A stretch of 64,000 bases of DNA from a phage. Numbering within the stretch: position 1 is the stretch's first letter; the number at the start of each line of letters is the position of its first letter. Shown in pieces: positions 28,297-37,307 of the stretch. Under the pieces are notes generated by a model. That model was not told the DNA's origin. It did no database searches and was given only the letters and a program-made list of their open reading frames with translations. Both the position numbers and the translations under genes were made by a program. The stretch lies in NCBI GenBank assembly GCA_026188615.1, contig GCA_026188615.1_4525.1, one strand, 5' to 3'.

Positions 28297-29430
<1,134 letters not shown>

Positions 29431-29447
29431 TCAGTTAGTTTTTTTAA

Positions 29448-29476
29448 ATTGTACCACAATCCTTGTGGTATGTAAA
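29448..29476 (-). promoter_or_regulatory. Early promoter for rnlA (TTTACA, 17 bp, TACAAT) with inverted repeat ccacaa/ttgtgg in the spacer
   Basis: Read directly on the minus strand. Confidence 0.5.
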
Positions 29477-29887
29477 CTACTTTTTCTTATGTTGGATATT
29501 CCAAGGCGGGTTGAACTTTTTGATAAAAAGTGGTTCTTCAAGGTCCATTGTTGCGATGGTCATTGAACCAAGTTCGTTGGTGACTGAAAGGTCAAAACAT
29601 TGGCGGGCCCAGAATTCAACCTTTTTGCCTTGCATTAAGGCATCCAAAATCATAAGTGATTTTCTTGAATCTGAAGTCTGGTCTTTTCGATTTATGGCTG
29701 TTCGATAATAGTTAATGCGTTTCTTTAAATTCTTGGTTTTACCAATATACACAAGTTCGTCATCTATAGCAATAGCGTATATGACATTTTTCTTATTAGG
29801 GACATCAACTGTTTTAATTGTTGCATCTTCTAATAGCTCCAATTCTGTATATTTAATAAAGGAATATTCGGCGGCAATATCTTTCAT
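29477..29887 (-). CDS. denA: Endonuclease II (GIY-YIG family)
   Basis: 136 aa; GIY-YIG-like block (VIYAIAIDDELVYIGKTKNLKKRINYY); position between rnlA and nrdB as in T4. Confidence 0.7.
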   Translation of the reverse strand: MKDIAAEYSFIKYTELELLEDATIKTVDVPNKKNVIYAIAIDDELVYIGKTKNLKKRINYYRTAINRKDQTSDSRKSLMILDALMQGKKVEFWARQCFDLSVTNELGSMTIATMDLEEPLFIKKFNPPWNIQHKKK

Positions 29888-29895
29888 AATAAAGT

Positions 29896-29909
29896 GGGAC
29901 CGAAGTCCC
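29896..29909 (-). other. Intercistronic hairpin gggac-UUCG-gtccc between nrdB and denA
   Basis: 5-bp GC stem with tetraloop. Confidence 0.35.
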
Positions 29910-29913
29910 GTCC

Positions 29914-30416
29914 TTAGAAATATTTTTTGTATGAATTGATTACATTTTGGTCTACATCATTATCAATTTGTGCGACAAGATAAGAACTGATTTCAACTTC
30001 CTGAGGAGCTGCTTGAACTAAATCAGAGTTCAGATATTCACGAATCCATGGAATAGGATGACGAGTTGATACGTCTTTAAGAGGACATGGCAGACCACAA
30101 CTACGCATACGAGACACGGTAAGATAATCCACAAATTCACTTAGGATTTTAACATTTAGACCTGGAAGAGCACCATCTTTAAACAAGTGTTCAGCCCATT
30201 CTTTTTCTTGAGCGTTAACTTCCATGAAAATATCAACTGCTTCTTGTTCACACTCTTGAGCAATTTTGACCCATTCATCACCGTCTTCGCCATCTTGTAA
30301 AGCACGAATAATATATTGAGTGCCCTTAAGGTGGAGCTGTTCATCACGAGCAATGAACTTCATAATCTTGGCATTACCTTCCATGATTTCCATGTTCTTA
30401 TGGAAGTTAAAGGTAC
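29914..30416 (-). CDS. nrdB: Ribonucleotide reductase small subunit NrdB, exon 2
   Basis: After splicing the junction reads FYVSFA-C-TFNFHKNMEIMEGNAK, matching the conserved NrdB FYVSFACSFAF..MEGNAK region; C-terminal tail VAQIDNDVD. Confidence 0.8.
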
Positions 30417-30551
30417 CGTATGTTCGATTGAGCTCGCTAATTCTCAACCCGTTCTCTTATGAACTGCTGCATGTTACCATGCAGTCCAGACTATATCACA
30501 ATCCCGGAGGGATTCTCCCCATTTCGAGTCGCTTGACCCTACGTCCGAAGA

Positions 30552-31361
30552 CTAGTCGTTGAACCTTGCTTTGCAATTGTCGCCGTGCCATCGTTTATAT
30601 GTTGATGGTGATAAATCTTTCTTATCACAATATGGACAATTCAATTGAATTCTATTTGGATTTAATTTACATCTGTCATTATGTTTTAGATAAAATCCAG
30701 GACCTTTACCAATGTGACCACAGAAATCACATGTGATTTCTTTTTGTGCAGGATGGGTCCCGTTCTTAACCATTTCTAATGTTTTTGCTGATGTTCTTTT
30801 CTTATGGTCTTCTGATAAGAAATGATGTGAACCGTCATTTACCCGTTTTGATTGAGTTTCTGACTGCATTTTACCACCGCAAAATACATGAGTACCTTCT
30901 TTTATAGCTGCAATATTGCGTTCTTTAACTTTTGCAATATGCTCAGCTTGTTGAAAATTATGTATACCTAATGCAACTCTATTTAAATTAGATTTACGCT
31001 GTATTTCACCGTCTAAAAGATGAAATGTACCATTTTCTATCTTAGATTTAATAGAGGCAATATTTTTAGCTCGTACTTCAGGGATATTAAAAATCTGGAT
31101 TTCTCTAGATTTTGCGGCTTTAGAAGCTAATTCAGAAATTTCTTCAGGAGAATATTTCATTCTAAGCTTTATAGCATGACAAGCCTGGTAATCTTTTTGA
31201 GCTAAATGTATATCATAATGTTCCTGTATAGAAAGGCACATCAAATTATCTAAATCATTATTTTCACGGTTACCGTCTTTATGATGGATTTCGTATGTTC
31301 TTCCATCAGAATCTTTAGGTATAGGTCCGTTAGCATCTATCCAAATTTTTCTATAGTTCAA
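30552..31361 (-). CDS. I-TevIII: Intron-encoded HNH homing endonuclease (I-TevIII-like), 269 aa
   Basis: HNH motif YEIHHKDGNRENNDLDNLMCLSIQEHYDIH and C-terminal Cys4 zinc fingers; apparent TTG start with SD GAGGA 7 nt upstream (the nearby ATG is out of frame). Confidence 0.75.
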   Translation of the reverse strand: MNYRKIWIDANGPIPKDSDGRTYEIHHKDGNRENNDLDNLMCLSIQEHYDIHLAQKDYQACHAIKLRMKYSPEEISELASKAAKSREIQIFNIPEVRAKNIASIKSKIENGTFHLLDGEIQRKSNLNRVALGIHNFQQAEHIAKVKERNIAAIKEGTHVFCGGKMQSETQSKRVNDGSHHFLSEDHKKRTSAKTLEMVKNGTHPAQKEITCDFCGHIGKGPGFYLKHNDRCKLNPNRIQLNCPYCDKKDLSPSTYKRWHGDNCKARFND

Positions 31362-31388
31362 TTGTGCATCCTCTTAAAAGTATAATCA

Positions 31389-31396
31389 TATTTATA
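31389..31396 (-). promoter_or_regulatory. Late promoter (TATAAATA on the minus strand) inside the intron, 28 bp upstream of the endonuclease ORF
   Basis: Plus strand reads TATTTATA. Confidence 0.45.
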
Positions 31397-31506
31397 TTAT
31401 ACTAATTAAAGGTGCAAGCAAAACCTTGGCTGCTAGTTTTCCTATAAAGGACTTTCCAGCAATTAAAGGAGTTTTCGATAAACGTTACCGTTTAAAGGCG
31501 CATTTT

Positions 31507-32182
31507 ACGCAAAAGATACATAAAAACGAATAGCTTCTAAGGCATTAATAACGTGCAAACAGAGGTAAAGAGACTTCATTAAAGCACGTTTAGCTTCGGC
31601 TTCTTGTTTAATAGCTCGGTTTAAACGAAAGTCGGCATCAGGAGATTCTTTAGCTAGTTCTACAAATTCCTTAGCGTTTTCCCAATAACGAGCTTTAACC
31701 AGAACATCATCATAATATCGTCCGATAGATTCGGCACGCTTCATAATAGCTTCATCTAATACAATCTCATCAAACACCTTCGATGGATCTGTATAAAGAT
31801 TTCGCATAATATGAGTATATGAACGAGAGTGAATAGTTTCACTGAAAGTCCATGTAGCAACCCATGTATCTAATGAAGGGTCTGAAAGCAATGACATAAG
31901 TACCGCAGATGGTGCTCTACCTTGGATAGAATCTAATAATGATTGATACTTAAGGTTGTTGGTAAAGATGTCCTGTTGGAACTGTGGAAGCTTATTAAAC
32001 TGGGCCGAATCCAACATCAAGTTTACTTCCTCGGGACGCCAGAAAAAACTTAGCTGCCGCTCAATGAGTTCTTCAAAAACTTTATGACGCTGAATATCAT
32101 AACGTGCGAGACCAAGACCAGAACCAAAGAACATTGGTTCGTTCAAAACATCGACTTGTTGTGTATTAAAAACTGTACTCAT
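31507..32182 (-). CDS. nrdB: Ribonucleotide reductase small subunit NrdB, exon 1
   Basis: 225 codons of NrdB N-terminus; ends at the 5' splice site after FYVSFA plus one nucleotide. Confidence 0.8.
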
Positions 32183-32877
32183 TTAGAATCCTTAAATTTA
32201 CATTTATCATAATGCCATCTTAGAGCATTGCCTTTATTAACTTTCTTGCCACAATGCGGACAAGGTGGATATTCAGTACTTTGCTTAGTTCTCAAAGAAA
32301 TCAAATCACGAGTTTCTTTAGTATGAGGAACATCTCTTGTTGGAGATATTGTACCATACATAGGATTAAGCACACCTAGTTTAGCTTTTGCTATATTCTT
32401 TTTGGCTTCATCTGATTTAGGTTTTCTCATCTTTTTCTTAGTTTCTTCACTTTTAGCCCTTCCTTTGGTTGCCGCCGATATTTTGTGCTTGGTTTCTTCT
32501 GTTAAATGTAGGCCTGTTTTCGCTTTTGAAATTTTCAGTCTTGTTTCTTCAGAAATGACCATACCTTTGCGAAATTGTGAATTTAACTTCTTTGCATGGG
32601 CATATATTTTAGAATGAACTTTATAATGTCGTTTCTTGGTTCCTTTCATATTGCACATCATGAAAAATGCGAATATAACAGATTTTATCGGATAAATCTT
32701 TGATAAAATAGCATGTGCTATAAAATGCTCTCTAGCTGTTAATTCAACTAAATTTTCTTTATCATCAGAACCTCCTAAACATCTAGGAACTATATGATGA
32801 GTCTCTTTATATTCGGATAAAGGTTCCCGAGCCTTAGCCCGGGAAATTAGGTCGTTATAGATTTTTTGATAATTCAT
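32179..32877 (-). CDS. mobE: Free-standing HNH homing endonuclease (MobE-like)
   Basis: 232 aa; HNH motif HHIVPRCLGGSDDKENLVELTAREHFIAH, repeated basic NUMOD3-like segments, C-terminal CPHCGKK...WHYDKC zinc finger; start overlaps nrdA stop (TAATG) and stop overlaps nrdB start (ATGA). Confidence 0.7.
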   Translation of the reverse strand: MNYQKIYNDLISRAKAREPLSEYKETHHIVPRCLGGSDDKENLVELTAREHFIAHAILSKIYPIKSVIFAFFMMCNMKGTKKRHYKVHSKIYAHAKKLNSQFRKGMVISEETRLKISKAKTGLHLTEETKHKISAATKGRAKSEETKKKMRKPKSDEAKKNIAKAKLGVLNPMYGTISPTRDVPHTKETRDLISLRTKQSTEYPPCPHCGKKVNKGNALRWHYDKCKFKDSK

Positions 32878-35132
32878 TACAATTTACAAGCAGAACAATC
32901 TTCAGCTTTAGGTGTTTCTAATTCATAGTCGTCTGTACCAGACCCATCACGAGTGTTATGATAGTAGAGGTTTTTTCCGCCAAAGTACCAGAAGTAAAGC
33001 AGATCGTCAAGCATTACAGACATTGGCACTTTACCTTTCTCAAATACTGCAGGGTCATAGTAAGTATTAGCAGAAGCAGATTGGCACACCCATTTCAACA
33101 TGATAGCAACTTGGGTCAAATAAGGTTTATTACCTTTCTTAGCAAGTTTCCACGCGTAGTCGTAAAGACTCATGTTATGTTCTATATTAGGAACAACCTG
33201 TCGGAAGTTGCCTTCTTTAGATTCTTTAATACTTACTGGACCGCGTGGGGGCTCAATCCCGTTTGTAGAGTTCGATACTTGACTGCTTGACTCACAAGGC
33301 ATGAGTGCAGACAACGTTGAGTTACGAATTCCATGTTCTTTGAGTTCAGCTCGAAGTTCTTCCCAGTCACAGACGTAGTTCGGGGCCGCGATTTGGTCAA
33401 TCTTTTTATTGTACCAGTCGATAGGTAATTCGCCTCTAGACCATTTAGTGTCTGAATAATACTCGCAAGGTCCTTTTTCTTTGGCGAGTTTGATTGAAGC
33501 TTTGATAAGGCCATATTGCAATCTCTCAAACAATTCATGAGTCAAATCGTTAGCATCTTCATATGAAGCAAAGTTAGAAGCTAACCATGCAGCATAGTTC
33601 GTCACACCAACGCCGAGGTTTCGACGCTTTTTAGCTTTTAAAGCTTCTGGAACAGGATAATCTTGATAGTCTAACAGGTTATCAAGTGCACGTACTTGTA
33701 CTTCAGCAAGTTCATTAATTTTATCTTGGTCTTGCCAATCAAATTTATCTAATACAAAAGCAGATAATGTGCATAAACCAATTTCAGCGTCAGGACCATT
33801 CACATCATTAGTTGGAATAGCGATTTCACAACATAAGTTACTCTGACGAATTGGAGCTTTTTCACGAATAAACGGAGTGTAGTTATTCGTGTTATCAACA
33901 AACTGTGGATAAATTCGAGCAGTACCAGAACGTTCAGTCATGAACAATTCAAAGAGTTCTAGTGCTTTGATTCTTTTCTTTCTGATTGTTGGGTCTTTTT
34001 CAGCTTTCTCATAAAGCTCACGGAATTTATCTTGATCTTCAAAGAACGAGTAGTATAGTTCGCCTGACATTTCGTGAGGGCTAAATAAAGTAATATAATC
34101 ATTTTTACCAAGGCGTTCCATCATAAGGTCATTAATCTGAATTCCGTAGTCCATATGTCGAATACGGTTTTCATCCACGCCTTTGTTATTTTTCAGAACT
34201 AATAGGTTCTCTACTTCTAAGTGCCACATCGGATAATACGCTGTAGCAGCACCACCACGAATACCACCTTGAGAACAAGATTTTACTGCAGTTTGGAAAT
34301 GTTTCCAGAATGGAATAACACCTGTATGTCGAACTTCACCCATACCGATCTTAGAACCTTCTGCACGAAGCATGCCAACGTTGATACCGATACCAGCTCG
34401 TTTAGAAATATATTCAATAATTGATGCTGAAGTTTTGTTAATAGATTTTAACGAATCACCGGCTTCAATAACTACACAACTAGAGAACTGGCGAGTCGGA
34501 GTACGAGCACCTGCCATAATTGGGGTTGGCAATGAAACTTGATGAGTAGAAACAGCATCATAAAAACGAATAATATGTTTCAAACGGTCATGAGTTTCGT
34601 CTTGATGTAAGGCCATACCAATAGCCATGATAGCAAACTGGGGAGTTTCATAAATCTTACCAGTTGTTTTATCTTTAACTAGGTATTTTTCTTTAAGCTG
34701 CATAGCACCAGCATAAGTCAGGTCAAAGTCTCGTTCATGTTTAATCTGTGAATCGAGATAAATGATTTCTTCTGCTGAATATTGAGACAACAGCTCAGGG
34801 TCATATTTGCCTTCATTAACACAGTAAGAAATATGGTCGATAAAAGCAGGCGGTTCAAACTGCCCATATACATCTTTACGAAGTGCAAACATTAGCCCTT
34901 TGGCGGCGACATACTGATAATCGGGTTCTTCGACAGAAATCAAGTTAGCTGCAACTTTAATACAAATCTTCTGGATATCTTTGGTGCTCATCCCATCGTC
35001 AAGATGGGTCTTAATTTCTTCGTACAATTCATATGGGTCGATTTGTGTTCCTTCACATTGCCAAGTTAATACTTGAATAATTTTCTGTGCATCAAAATTT
35101 TGGGATACCCCACTGCTCTTAGTTACTTGCAT
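32877..35132 (-). CDS. nrdA: Ribonucleotide reductase large subunit NrdA
   Basis: 751 aa; ATP-cone N-terminus and active-site blocks (NLCCEIA, PCESSSQVSN); colinear with T4 NrdA. Confidence 0.9.
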   Translation of the reverse strand: MQVTKSSGVSQNFDAQKIIQVLTWQCEGTQIDPYELYEEIKTHLDDGMSTKDIQKICIKVAANLISVEEPDYQYVAAKGLMFALRKDVYGQFEPPAFIDHISYCVNEGKYDPELLSQYSAEEIIYLDSQIKHERDFDLTYAGAMQLKEKYLVKDKTTGKIYETPQFAIMAIGMALHQDETHDRLKHIIRFYDAVSTHQVSLPTPIMAGARTPTRQFSSCVVIEAGDSLKSINKTSASIIEYISKRAGIGINVGMLRAEGSKIGMGEVRHTGVIPFWKHFQTAVKSCSQGGIRGGAATAYYPMWHLEVENLLVLKNNKGVDENRIRHMDYGIQINDLMMERLGKNDYITLFSPHEMSGELYYSFFEDQDKFRELYEKAEKDPTIRKKRIKALELFELFMTERSGTARIYPQFVDNTNNYTPFIREKAPIRQSNLCCEIAIPTNDVNGPDAEIGLCTLSAFVLDKFDWQDQDKINELAEVQVRALDNLLDYQDYPVPEALKAKKRRNLGVGVTNYAAWLASNFASYEDANDLTHELFERLQYGLIKASIKLAKEKGPCEYYSDTKWSRGELPIDWYNKKIDQIAAPNYVCDWEELRAELKEHGIRNSTLSALMPCESSSQVSNSTNGIEPPRGPVSIKESKEGNFRQVVPNIEHNMSLYDYAWKLAKKGNKPYLTQVAIMLKWVCQSASANTYYDPAVFEKGKVPMSVMLDDLLYFWYFGGKNLYYHNTRDGSGTDDYELETPKAEDCSACKL

Positions 35133-35475: not shown

Positions 35476-36336
35476 TTATACCGCCATTTTAGCTTTGATA
35501 GCTGGATGTGATTCGTAATTTTTAAGAACGAAATCAGAATGTGTCATCGTTCCAGTAACCCAGTCCATTTGGATTTTTGTAGGCCAATTCTCAAAATTAC
35601 TAGGCCAATTAATTTCAAGAGAACACAACTCTTTAGGTTCACGACGAAGAACTTCTTTGCATTGTTCTACATGATTGCTGTAGATATGCGTGTTGCCGCC
35701 TGAGAACACTAAATCACCCGGGATAAGGTTACACATCTTCGCTACAATATGCGTCAAGGCGGCGTACGAGGCGATGTTGAACGGCAAGCCCAAGAAAACA
35801 TCTACACTGCGTTGATACCATTGTAAATCAAGATGTCCATTACGCACATTAAATTGATAGAACATATGACAAGGAGGAAGAGCCATTTGGTCAATTTCGG
35901 CAGGGTTCCATGCAGAAACTATTTGACGACGGTCAGTTGGTAATTTTTTAATACGGTTGATTGTTTCAACCAATTGGTCCACACCACCAAAATCTCGCCA
36001 TTGCTTACCATAAATAGGACCAAGTTCGCCACTATGATAACCAAGGTCTTTTGCCTGATTTTCATAGTTGTCGTCCCAAATAGTTTTGCCTTCAATTAGA
36101 CTACCATGAGTACGAATACGCAAATCATTAACATTGGTAGAACCAGACATGAACCACAGTAGTTCGGCAATACAAGCTTTCCATGCTAATTTCTTAGTTG
36201 TTACTGCAGGGAATCCTTTAGTCAGGTCCCAACGTAATTTAGTTCCGAACAGGGCAATTGTTCCTGTGCCTGTACGGTCGTCTGTTTCATAGCCGTTTTC
36301 AAGGATATTTTTAATTAAATCTTGATATTGTTTCAT
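35476..36336 (-). CDS. td: Thymidylate synthase, uninterrupted (no intron)
   Basis: 286 aa continuous ORF; active-site region ALPPCHMFYQF; full length equals T4 Td, so no intron is present. Confidence 0.9.
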   Translation of the reverse strand: MKQYQDLIKNILENGYETDDRTGTGTIALFGTKLRWDLTKGFPAVTTKKLAWKACIAELLWFMSGSTNVNDLRIRTHGSLIEGKTIWDDNYENQAKDLGYHSGELGPIYGKQWRDFGGVDQLVETINRIKKLPTDRRQIVSAWNPAEIDQMALPPCHMFYQFNVRNGHLDLQWYQRSVDVFLGLPFNIASYAALTHIVAKMCNLIPGDLVFSGGNTHIYSNHVEQCKEVLRREPKELCSLEINWPSNFENWPTKIQMDWVTGTMTHSDFVLKNYESHPAIKAKMAV

Positions 36337-36349
36337 TTAGCACCTATAA

Positions 36350-37307
<958 letters not shown>

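Follow-up and report, generated by a model that had tools for sequence, protein, structure and literature searches.

The nrdB gene of this phage, a T4-like Tequatrovirus, very probably holds an RB3-type mobile group I intron (we put the probability of this reading at about 95%), as proposed in a first-pass annotation of the window, the whole stretch of 64,000 nucleotides analysed here, whose interpretation of the intron is supported. The features observed here were the splice-site geometry, the core pairings, an intact ORF with its catalytic residues, near-identity to the RB3 element and a co-conversion footprint. The intron with its intact I-TevIII gene is an ordinary, already published element of T4-like phages: the RB3 nrdB intron with the same 1090 nt and 269 codons was described in 1991 (Eddy & Gold 1991, Genes Dev 5:1032) and RB3 I-TevIII was characterised in 2007 (Robbins et al. 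2007, PMC1865063), so the element carries little weight as a discovery.

The gene lies on the minus strand, with exon 1 at 32182..31507, an insert of 1090 nt at 31506..30417 and exon 2 at 30416..29914. The genes and elements of the region are as follows.

35476..36336, minus strand: td, encoding thymidylate synthase; one continuous ORF of 286 codons without an intron
32179..32877, minus strand: mobE-like gene for a free-standing HNH/NUMOD3 endonuclease, located between nrdA and nrdB, directly upstream of nrdB
31507..32182, minus strand: nrdB exon 1, 225 codons and base 1 of codon 226, with the 5' splice site as annotated in T4/RB3 nrdB
30417..31506, minus strand: group I (IA2-type) self-splicing intron, RB3 type, 1090 nt, 99.3% identity to the RB3 nrdB intron
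31389..31396, minus strand: TATAAATA, the consensus of T4 late promoters, 27 nt before the TTG, with a function inferred from the literature
30552..31361, minus strand: I-TevIII gene, 269 codons, TTG start, encoding an HNH domain (residues 4-48) and two zinc fingers
29914..30416, minus strand: nrdB exon 2, bases 2-3 of codon 226, 166 more codons and the stop codon

The ORFs present run over 31505..32182 and 29914..30447, both on the minus strand, and in the unspliced RNA the exon 1 frame hits a stop immediately (GCG TAA). Exon 1 ends at T31507 in the context ...TTT GCG T / AAAATGCGCC and the intron ends at G30417 in the context ...AACATACG / GTACCTTTAAC (slashes mark the splice sites). The first-pass annotation had held that the two NrdB ORFs join in frame once 30417..31506 is removed; joining 32182..31507 to 30416..29914 indeed gives 1179 nt, or 392 codons and a stop, which reads FYVSFA-C-TFNF, and removal of exactly 1090 nt brings back the invariant R2 motif FYVSFAC. 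The joined 392-aa NrdB aligned with E. coli R2 over residues 3-388 in one stretch (E = 2e-127), unbroken at the junction, with AIRFYVSFAC matched across it. The predicted spliced RNA would read ...UUUGCGU / GUACCUUU... at the junction of 31507 to 30416.

The intron RNA was divided into the following elements, using the Rfam alignment of orthologues, folding and helix pair counts.

31498..31510, minus strand: P1, formed by exon GCGU (31510..31507) and the internal guide GCGC (31501..31498)
31479..31494, minus strand: P2 hairpin with a GUAA loop; compensatory changes in 3 of 6 pairs among orthologues
31431..31471, minus strand: P3 5' strand (31471..31466), then P4-P5 (31461..31431), from the Rfam alignment of orthologues; compensatory pair in P5
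31365..31430, minus strand: P6/P6a 5' strands (31430..31418), followed by a hairpin (31416..31365), from folding; pair counts of helices 8-9
30563..30574, minus strand: P6a and P6 3' strands, inside the last 8 ORF codons
30489..30557, minus strand: 3' half of the catalytic core (P7 5' strand, P7.1, P7.2, P3 3' strand, P8, P7 3' strand), the partial RF00028 match
30417..30484, minus strand: P9 (30484..30467), P9.1 (30464..30451), P9.2 (30449..30426) and terminal G30417; P9 and P9.2 contain compensatory pairs

At the 5' splice site, U31507.G31501 forms a wobble pair, in agreement with the earlier claim that a U-ended 5' exon pairs with a GCGC guide, and all 4 P1 pairs are kept in 7/7 orthologues. 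The terminal guanosine of the intron (omega G), also predicted by the annotation, is G30417 and is likewise kept in all seven. In P7, the helix that binds guanosine in group I introns, the 5' strand GACUA (30557..30553) overlaps the TAG stop of I-TevIII, and its 3' partner UAGUC lies at 30493..30489. The reported likeness of the 3' core to the T4 td intron was borne out by 73% identity over 102 nt (E = 2e-8).

When the Rfam model RF00028 was run over the whole window at the gathering score (50 bits), no match was returned, and below that score only the 3' half of the intron was matched (36.3 bits, E = 2.8e-7). The miss probably arises because a 785-nt ORF insertion occupies the P6 loop and the model cannot span it; natural ORF-less copies from phages PD112 and DCP80, which differ from the window intron core by few bases, scored 68.6 and 74.1 bits against the cut-off of 50. 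As these ORF-less orthologues pass, the miss at the gathering score was not taken as evidence against an intron. The covariance-model scan that the first-pass annotation had suggested as a check thus matched the 3' half below the gathering score and gave no match in the window at that score.

A structure comprising P1, P2, P3, P4, P5, P6/6a, P7, P7.1, P7.2, P8, P9, P9.1 and P9.2 was mapped onto seven orthologues (alignment A1), among which 99.8% of alignment cells were paired and 9 compensatory pairs were found, in P2, P5, the ribosome-binding-site hairpin, P7.2, P9 and P9.2. None of 500 shuffles was as good, and slid controls were 35-44% paired. The core helices P3, P4, P6, P7 and P8 do not vary across these orthologues, so covariation is uninformative for them, neither for nor against. 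RNAalifold on the ORF-deleted alignment recovered P1, P2, P4-P6, P7.1, P7.2 and P9-P9.2; owing to the pseudoknot between P3 and P7, its pairing of the P3/P7/P8 region was wrong and was discarded in favour of the canonical pairing from the Rfam alignment, in which the pairs were then counted. The claimed group I core is upheld by Rfam recognition in the ORF-less orthologues and by covariation in support of the structure.

The same evidence bears on a reading without any intron, in which nrdB would have been fractured by a free-standing HNH gene, its halves being translated separately or the gene being dead. An in-frame stop codon does close exon 1, and two NrdB coding sequences plus a homing endonuclease are annotated in many related records. 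However, the sequences on either side of the ORF together form a complete group I core that RF00028 recognises in the ORF-less orthologues, the structure is backed by compensatory changes, the 5' splice site has its U.G pair and the intron its terminal G, and taking out exactly 1090 nt restores FYVSFAC. The T4 intron at the same nrdB site is, moreover, the classic experimentally spliced intron of the established literature, and its GTP-dependent self-splicing in vitro is known. Given the group I core, the compensatory pairs and the restored R2 motif, a split gene without splicing was rejected and is left with a negligible probability.

Turning to the protein encoded within the intron, the full-length 269-aa HNH/zinc-finger endonuclease described in the annotation was confirmed, being identical to RB3 I-TevIII in 268/269 residues (the single difference is D23Y) and identical to the phage JK45 protein. 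The apparent TTG start proved to be the one annotated in RB3, S16, JK45 and others. Counted from this start, with the same numbering, the catalytic residues H26, H27, N39 and H48 are all present, and two CX2CX12-13HX3C zinc fingers lie at 211-231 and 242-263 with C211, C214, C242 and C245 in place; the residue roles come from the work on RB3 I-TevIII, in which the catalytic residues were defined by mutagenesis (PMC1865063). The protein matched Pfam HNH_3 (6e-13) and phrog_12324 'intron-like DNA endonuclease' over 1-269/269 (E = 1.9e-193), and a PDB sequence search with it gave no match to any solved structure. A Pfam FlgM hit on residues 74-114 (score 26.2 bits, cut-off 25) was judged a chance match to the helical linker and set aside.

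Upstream of the gene, a Shine-Dalgarno sequence AAGAGGA lies 7 nt before the TTG. The late promoter that the first-pass annotation had placed 28 bp upstream of the start corresponds to the TATAAATA motif, which is conserved in the T4, RB3 and S16 versions of the intron; the position thus agreed, and no statistical enrichment of the motif accompanied it, with 12 copies found in the window against 7.9 expected and 7 of 100 shuffles as high. As the motif is not enriched, the support for a promoter comes only from position, conservation and literature. The hairpin at 31416..31365 pairs AAGAGGA with CCUUU and folds at -17.6 kcal/mol (z = -4.0), its upper part containing the late-promoter motif, and a hairpin-regulated I-TevIII has been described (PMC2988022). 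A sigma-70 and terminator scan of 29400..33000 found nothing above shuffles except a terminator-like hairpin just after nrdB.

Comparison with known introns places the window copy closest to that of RB3. The two share the gene, the insertion site, the length (a 1090-nt intron in X59078), 99.3% nucleotide identity, the 269-codon TTG ORF, the HNH and zinc-finger residues and the promoter/hairpin region, and differ at about 10 nucleotides; these differences include a compensatory pair in P9 and, ahead of the 3' splice site, one A fewer. Phage RB3 itself has a different backbone, a td intron with I-TevI and another mobE allele (~40% nt identity). The T4 nrdB intron, which the annotation had correctly described as shorter and with a truncated ORF at the same site, is a 598-nt deleted version with identical splice sites and RNA core and an identical stretch from P9 to the terminal G, whereas it is without 491 nt of the ORF, so that the HNH domain is gone and I-TevIII is defunct; its P5 loop is also shorter by 1 nt, P6a carries one G-to-A change, and the intron is not self-mobile (PMC1865063, PMC2790892).

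The full-length-ORF version was found in about 80 public T4-like phage records, including U5, JK45, SHFML-11, HY03 and S16, and the 1090-nt intron with a 269-codon ORF is common in sequenced Tequatroviruses. Relative to the window, these copies show minor polymorphisms only; the vB_ECOLIGBLB0003 intron differs at 2 positions, and the copy of S16 (Gelderlandvirus) has 28 amino-acid changes at 89% identity. Three independent deletion derivatives of the intron exist in other phages, and together with them the intact window copy illustrates the homing-endonuclease life cycle.

The td gene of the window was confirmed as intronless, its continuous 286-aa product aligning end to end (1-286 to 1-286) with T4 thymidylate synthase 1TIS. 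The T4 td intron, which is therefore absent from the window, belongs to the same subgroup of phage group I introns and has an ORF looped out of the core under late-promoter/hairpin control (PMC2988022), but it sits in td and encodes the GIY-YIG enzyme I-TevI rather than an HNH enzyme. I-HmuI of Bacillus phage SPO1 resembles I-TevIII in being an HNH enzyme encoded by an intron and in having an extended DNA-binding region (PMC1865063); it is a monomeric nickase, whereas I-TevIII is a dimer making a double-strand break.

The following account of how this phage would splice the intron, cut its target and express the enzyme late is taken from the literature or inferred. The transcribed intron RNA would fold into the group I core (P1-P9.2), and an external guanosine would attack the phosphate after U31507, held in P1 by the U.G wobble with the guide GCGC. 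The freed exon 1 would then attack after terminal G30417 and the exons would be joined, which would turn codon 226 into UGU (Cys) and give a normal R2 subunit. The P6 loop carries the gene for I-TevIII, an HNH endonuclease that has two zinc fingers and is presumed to act as a dimer. The hairpin probably locks the ribosome-binding site of early read-through transcripts, and late transcripts from the TATAAATA promoter inside the hairpin may free this site, giving late enzyme from the UUG start. For RB3, mobility has been reported, as have the zinc fingers of the enzyme and its cleavage of both strands as a dimer, 14/16 bp upstream (PMC1865063). Repair off an intron-bearing genome would copy in the intron together with neighbouring exon sequence (homing with co-conversion).

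A footprint of this kind was observed: identity to RB3/T4 is 93-100% in the intron and the exon sequence next to it, whereas the backbone around this island, at the 3' end of nrdA and in the distal part of exon 2, is only 66-76% identical. So sharply bounded an island of identity documents recent horizontal transfer of the intron into a divergent backbone.

Whether the window enzyme itself acts in such mobility bears on a second alternative, in which the intron splices but I-TevIII is inactive or too weak here, and the element persists by vertical descent and trans-homing by MobE, like the defunct T4 copy. A mobE-like HNH/NUMOD3 gene does lie directly upstream of nrdB, T4 MobE nicks nrdB and mobilises the T4 nrdB intron in trans (PMC2790892), RB3 I-TevIII itself has a low, unexplained catalytic efficiency and a modest homing frequency (PMC1865063), and the window protein carries Y rather than D at position 23, close to the active site and three residues before catalytic H26. 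Against this, the ORF is complete and keeps every residue that mutagenesis showed to be needed, and unneeded ORFs decay visibly, as in the three deletion derivatives, which the window ORF has not done. Y23, moreover, appears from sequence comparison to be the majority natural allele: a 61-nt stretch over codon 23 was identical in 66/80 records (61-mer search of the phage collection), and Y23 was present in 6/6 non-RB3 orthologues translated, including the distant, 89%-identical S16. Its apparent majority and its presence in S16 argue for purifying selection, and we regard an inactive endonuclease as improbable, favouring an intact I-TevIII. Exact-match IMG/VR scans for the Y23 and D23 alleles returned 1 and 0 matches, respectively, and were uninformative. 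A further reading, to which we give a low probability, is that D23 of RB3 could be a minority hypomorphic allele behind the low efficiency and modest homing of that enzyme, the common Y23 allele being a markedly better enzyme.

The practical value lies in annotation: nrdB here should be recorded as a two-exon join with I-TevIII inside, as the RB3 record has it, whereas two NrdB fragments are given in many related GenBank entries.

The minus strand carries, in order, frd, a 115-aa ORF, td, an nrdA.2-like ORF, nrdA, a mobE-like HNH gene, a split nrdB, denA and rnlA; the locus is the T4 nrd/td region, with two nrdB pieces flanking a 269-aa ORF. The best identity of a 25-kb stretch to any deposited phage was 97.4%, the nearest being the Tequatroviruses vB_EcoM_WFK and WFL6982. 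The features discussed are as follows.

36336..35476, minus strand: td, 286 codons
32182..31507, minus strand: nrdB exon 1, 3' end ...TTT GCG T
31506..30417, minus strand: nrdB insert, exactly 1090 nt, beginning AAAATGCGCC... and finishing ...AACATACG at 30417
31361..30552, minus strand: I-TevIII ORF, 269 codons, TTG start
30416..29914, minus strand: nrdB exon 2, beginning GTACCTTTAAC at 30416, stop at 29914

Joining the two exons gives a 392-aa NrdB reading ...AIRFYVSFA-C-TFNF..., which aligned with the E. coli ribonucleotide reductase subunit R2 in a single stretch (3–388, E = 2e-127) with AIRFYVSFAC matched over the junction; the exon coordinates and junction proposed in the first-pass annotation are therefore correct. 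The exon-1 segment at 31613..31712 (...EFVELAKESPDADFRLNRAIKQEAEAKRA...) is common to the window and RB3, whereas that of T4 differs, being 12 nt shorter and 59% identical over these 100 nt, which accounts for the 388-aa length of T4 NrdB.

The insert is a known element, the RB3-type nrdB intron with I-TevIII; what the first-pass annotation observed is confirmed and its interpretation is supported. The RB3 nrdB intron, whose record annotates a two-piece nrdB join with I-TevIII inside, is 99.3% identical to the 1090 nt of the window, and Eddy and Gold's original RB3 entry (X59078) gives an intron of 1090 nt with the same boundary sequences. The shorter intron attributed to T4 at this site was likewise found: it shares the window's boundaries but is only 598 nt long, with 491 nt of the ORF missing and the P5 loop one base shorter, and the RB3 intron has been described as the full-length form of the T4 intron (PMC1865063). 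At least 80% of the intron is present in 85 phage records, one of which differs from the window intron at only 2 positions. Many related GenBank/RefSeq records (L001, L004 and L006–L011) annotate nrdB as two CDS (both 'ribonucleotide reductase beta') plus a homing endonuclease and not as a spliced join, which is annotated in the RB3, T4 and U5 records.

The Rfam group I model gave no match in the window at gathering score, because the ORF sits in the P6 loop; at a relaxed threshold its 3' half (P6', P7, P3', P8, P7', P9) matched at 36.3 bits (E = 2.8e-7), with the model's 5' half pushed into ORF sequence, and natural versions of this intron that lack the ORF, in phages PD112 (304 nt) and DCP80 (309 nt), scored 68.6 and 74.1 bits over the full model (cut-off 50). 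These two were aligned with the introns of the window, RB3, T4, SG1 and S16, ORF columns removed, and the canonical structure was written out (P1, P2, P3, P4, P5, P6/P6a, ORF-proximal hairpin, P7 entered as a pseudoknot, P7.1, P7.2, P8, P9, P9.1, P9.2), every element being mapped back onto window coordinates and checked. Standard pairs occupied 99.8% of 622 cells, and compensatory changes occurred at nine pairs, in P2 (three), P5, the hairpin, P7.2, P9 and P9.2 (two). None of 500 shuffles reached the observed pairing and compensatory changes, and moving partners by 1–3 columns left 35–44% paired with zero compensatory pairs. Among these close relatives the core helices P3, P4, P6, P7 and P8 are invariant and covariation therefore says nothing about them; the support for these predicted helices is the covariance model. 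The 3' core is 73% identical to that of the td intron over 102 nt, in agreement with the resemblance suggested earlier. A broken nrdB that is never spliced can for practical purposes be dismissed, given a complete set of group I core elements, a U.G pair, a terminal G and an R2 motif that is recovered exactly when the insert is removed.

The I-TevIII encoded by the RB3 intron is a dimeric HNH enzyme containing two zinc fingers (PMC1865063). The window protein retains H26, H27, N39, H48, C211, C214, C242 and C245, the importance of which was shown by mutagenesis (PMC1865063), and matches Pfam HNH_3 (6e-13) and, end to end, PHROG 12324 ('intron-like DNA endonuclease'), in line with its description as a full-length 269-aa HNH/zinc-finger endonuclease. 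The proposed TTG start, which has AAGAGGA 7 nt upstream of it and an in-frame TAA five codons ahead, is also the one annotated for RB3, S16, JK45, SHFML-11, HY03 and others; a start at the earliest in-frame ATG (codon 41) would lose H26, H27 and N39. At the other end of the ORF, the 3' strands of P6a and P6 overlap the last codons and the P7 5' strand overlaps the TAG stop. The linker between the HNH and DNA-binding domains (residues 74–114, window 31140..31020) gave a marginal match to Pfam FlgM, an anti-sigma-28 family (26.2 bits, cut-off 25), probably a coincidental resemblance to a helical stretch.

The JK45 protein is identical to that of the window, and the RB3 protein differs solely at residue 23 (codon at 31295..31293), three residues ahead of the catalytic His26, where the window has Tyr and RB3 has Asp. 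All six translated orthologues other than RB3 (JK45, S16, HY03, SHFML-11 and others) have Tyr23, and 66 of 80 records match the 61-nt stretch around the codon exactly, the RB3 group (RB3, RB5, RB7, RB9, RB10) being among the 14 that mismatch. Tyr23 thus appears to be the common allele and the biochemically characterised RB3 enzyme a minority allele beside the active site, a mildly new side angle. An enzyme that looks intact but is inactive, and whose intron is mobilised by the neighbouring MobE, as in T4 (PMC2790892), is unlikely because the full ORF and Tyr23 are conserved across orthologues down to 89% identity.

We infer that I-TevIII expression is controlled by a hairpin and a late promoter. 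The late-promoter motif TATAAATA (31396..31389, minus strand) lies within a hairpin at 31416..31365 that folds at -17.6 kcal/mol (z = -4.0), pairs the Shine-Dalgarno sequence with CCUUU in its stem and shows a compensatory change at one pair. The motif count across the window is not above chance, so the basis for the late-promoter step is conservation and the literature.

A 7-bp direct repeat, ACAATTG, brackets the ORF (31365..31359 and 30580..30574, minus strand; copies 785 bp apart), and the TTG start falls inside the first copy. The ORF-less introns of PD112 (L004 1201..1504) and DCP80 (L005 1201..1509) keep exactly one copy together with the late promoter, RBS hairpin and TTG, and for this reason look like clean repeat-mediated deletions and not ancestral empty introns; that the repeat exactly accounts for ORF-less variants in other phages is also mildly new. 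The T4 and SG1 (420 nt) introns represent two other, independent internal deletions.

Identity to RB3, measured in 100-nt windows, was 73–76% at the nrdA 3' end, 87–98% over the last 400 nt of exon 1, 99–100% in the intron, 96% in the first 100 nt of exon 2 and 66–72% in distal exon 2 and denA. Within 29400..33600 the intron and adjoining exon thus form a sharp island (93–100% to RB3/T4, flanks 66–76%), a pattern consistent with recent homing and co-conversion into a divergent backbone; such exon co-conversion footprints are published for T-even introns (PMC2988022). The mobE-like HNH and NUMOD3 gene between nrdA and nrdB (32179..32877, minus strand, 232 aa), whose stop overlaps the nrdB start (ATGA), has 84–96% nucleotide identity to the matching T4 region but only about 40% to RB3 mobE, and the two homing elements of the locus therefore differ in history.

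The td gene is intronless, as had been read from its continuous 286 codons: residues 1–286 aligned with 1–286 of T4 thymidylate synthase (1TIS) in a single stretch. At least 100 phage records share this intronless frd-ORF-td arrangement, and T-even phages are well known to differ in their intron content (PMC1865063). The 115-aa ORF between frd and td (36350..36697, minus strand), not annotated there in the RB3 or T4 records examined, is without a Pfam family and matches phrog_1928 (unknown function). Directly past the nrdB stop codon and ahead of denA lies a terminator-like hairpin (29909..29896, minus strand), GGGACTTCGGTCCC followed by ACTTTATTAT.
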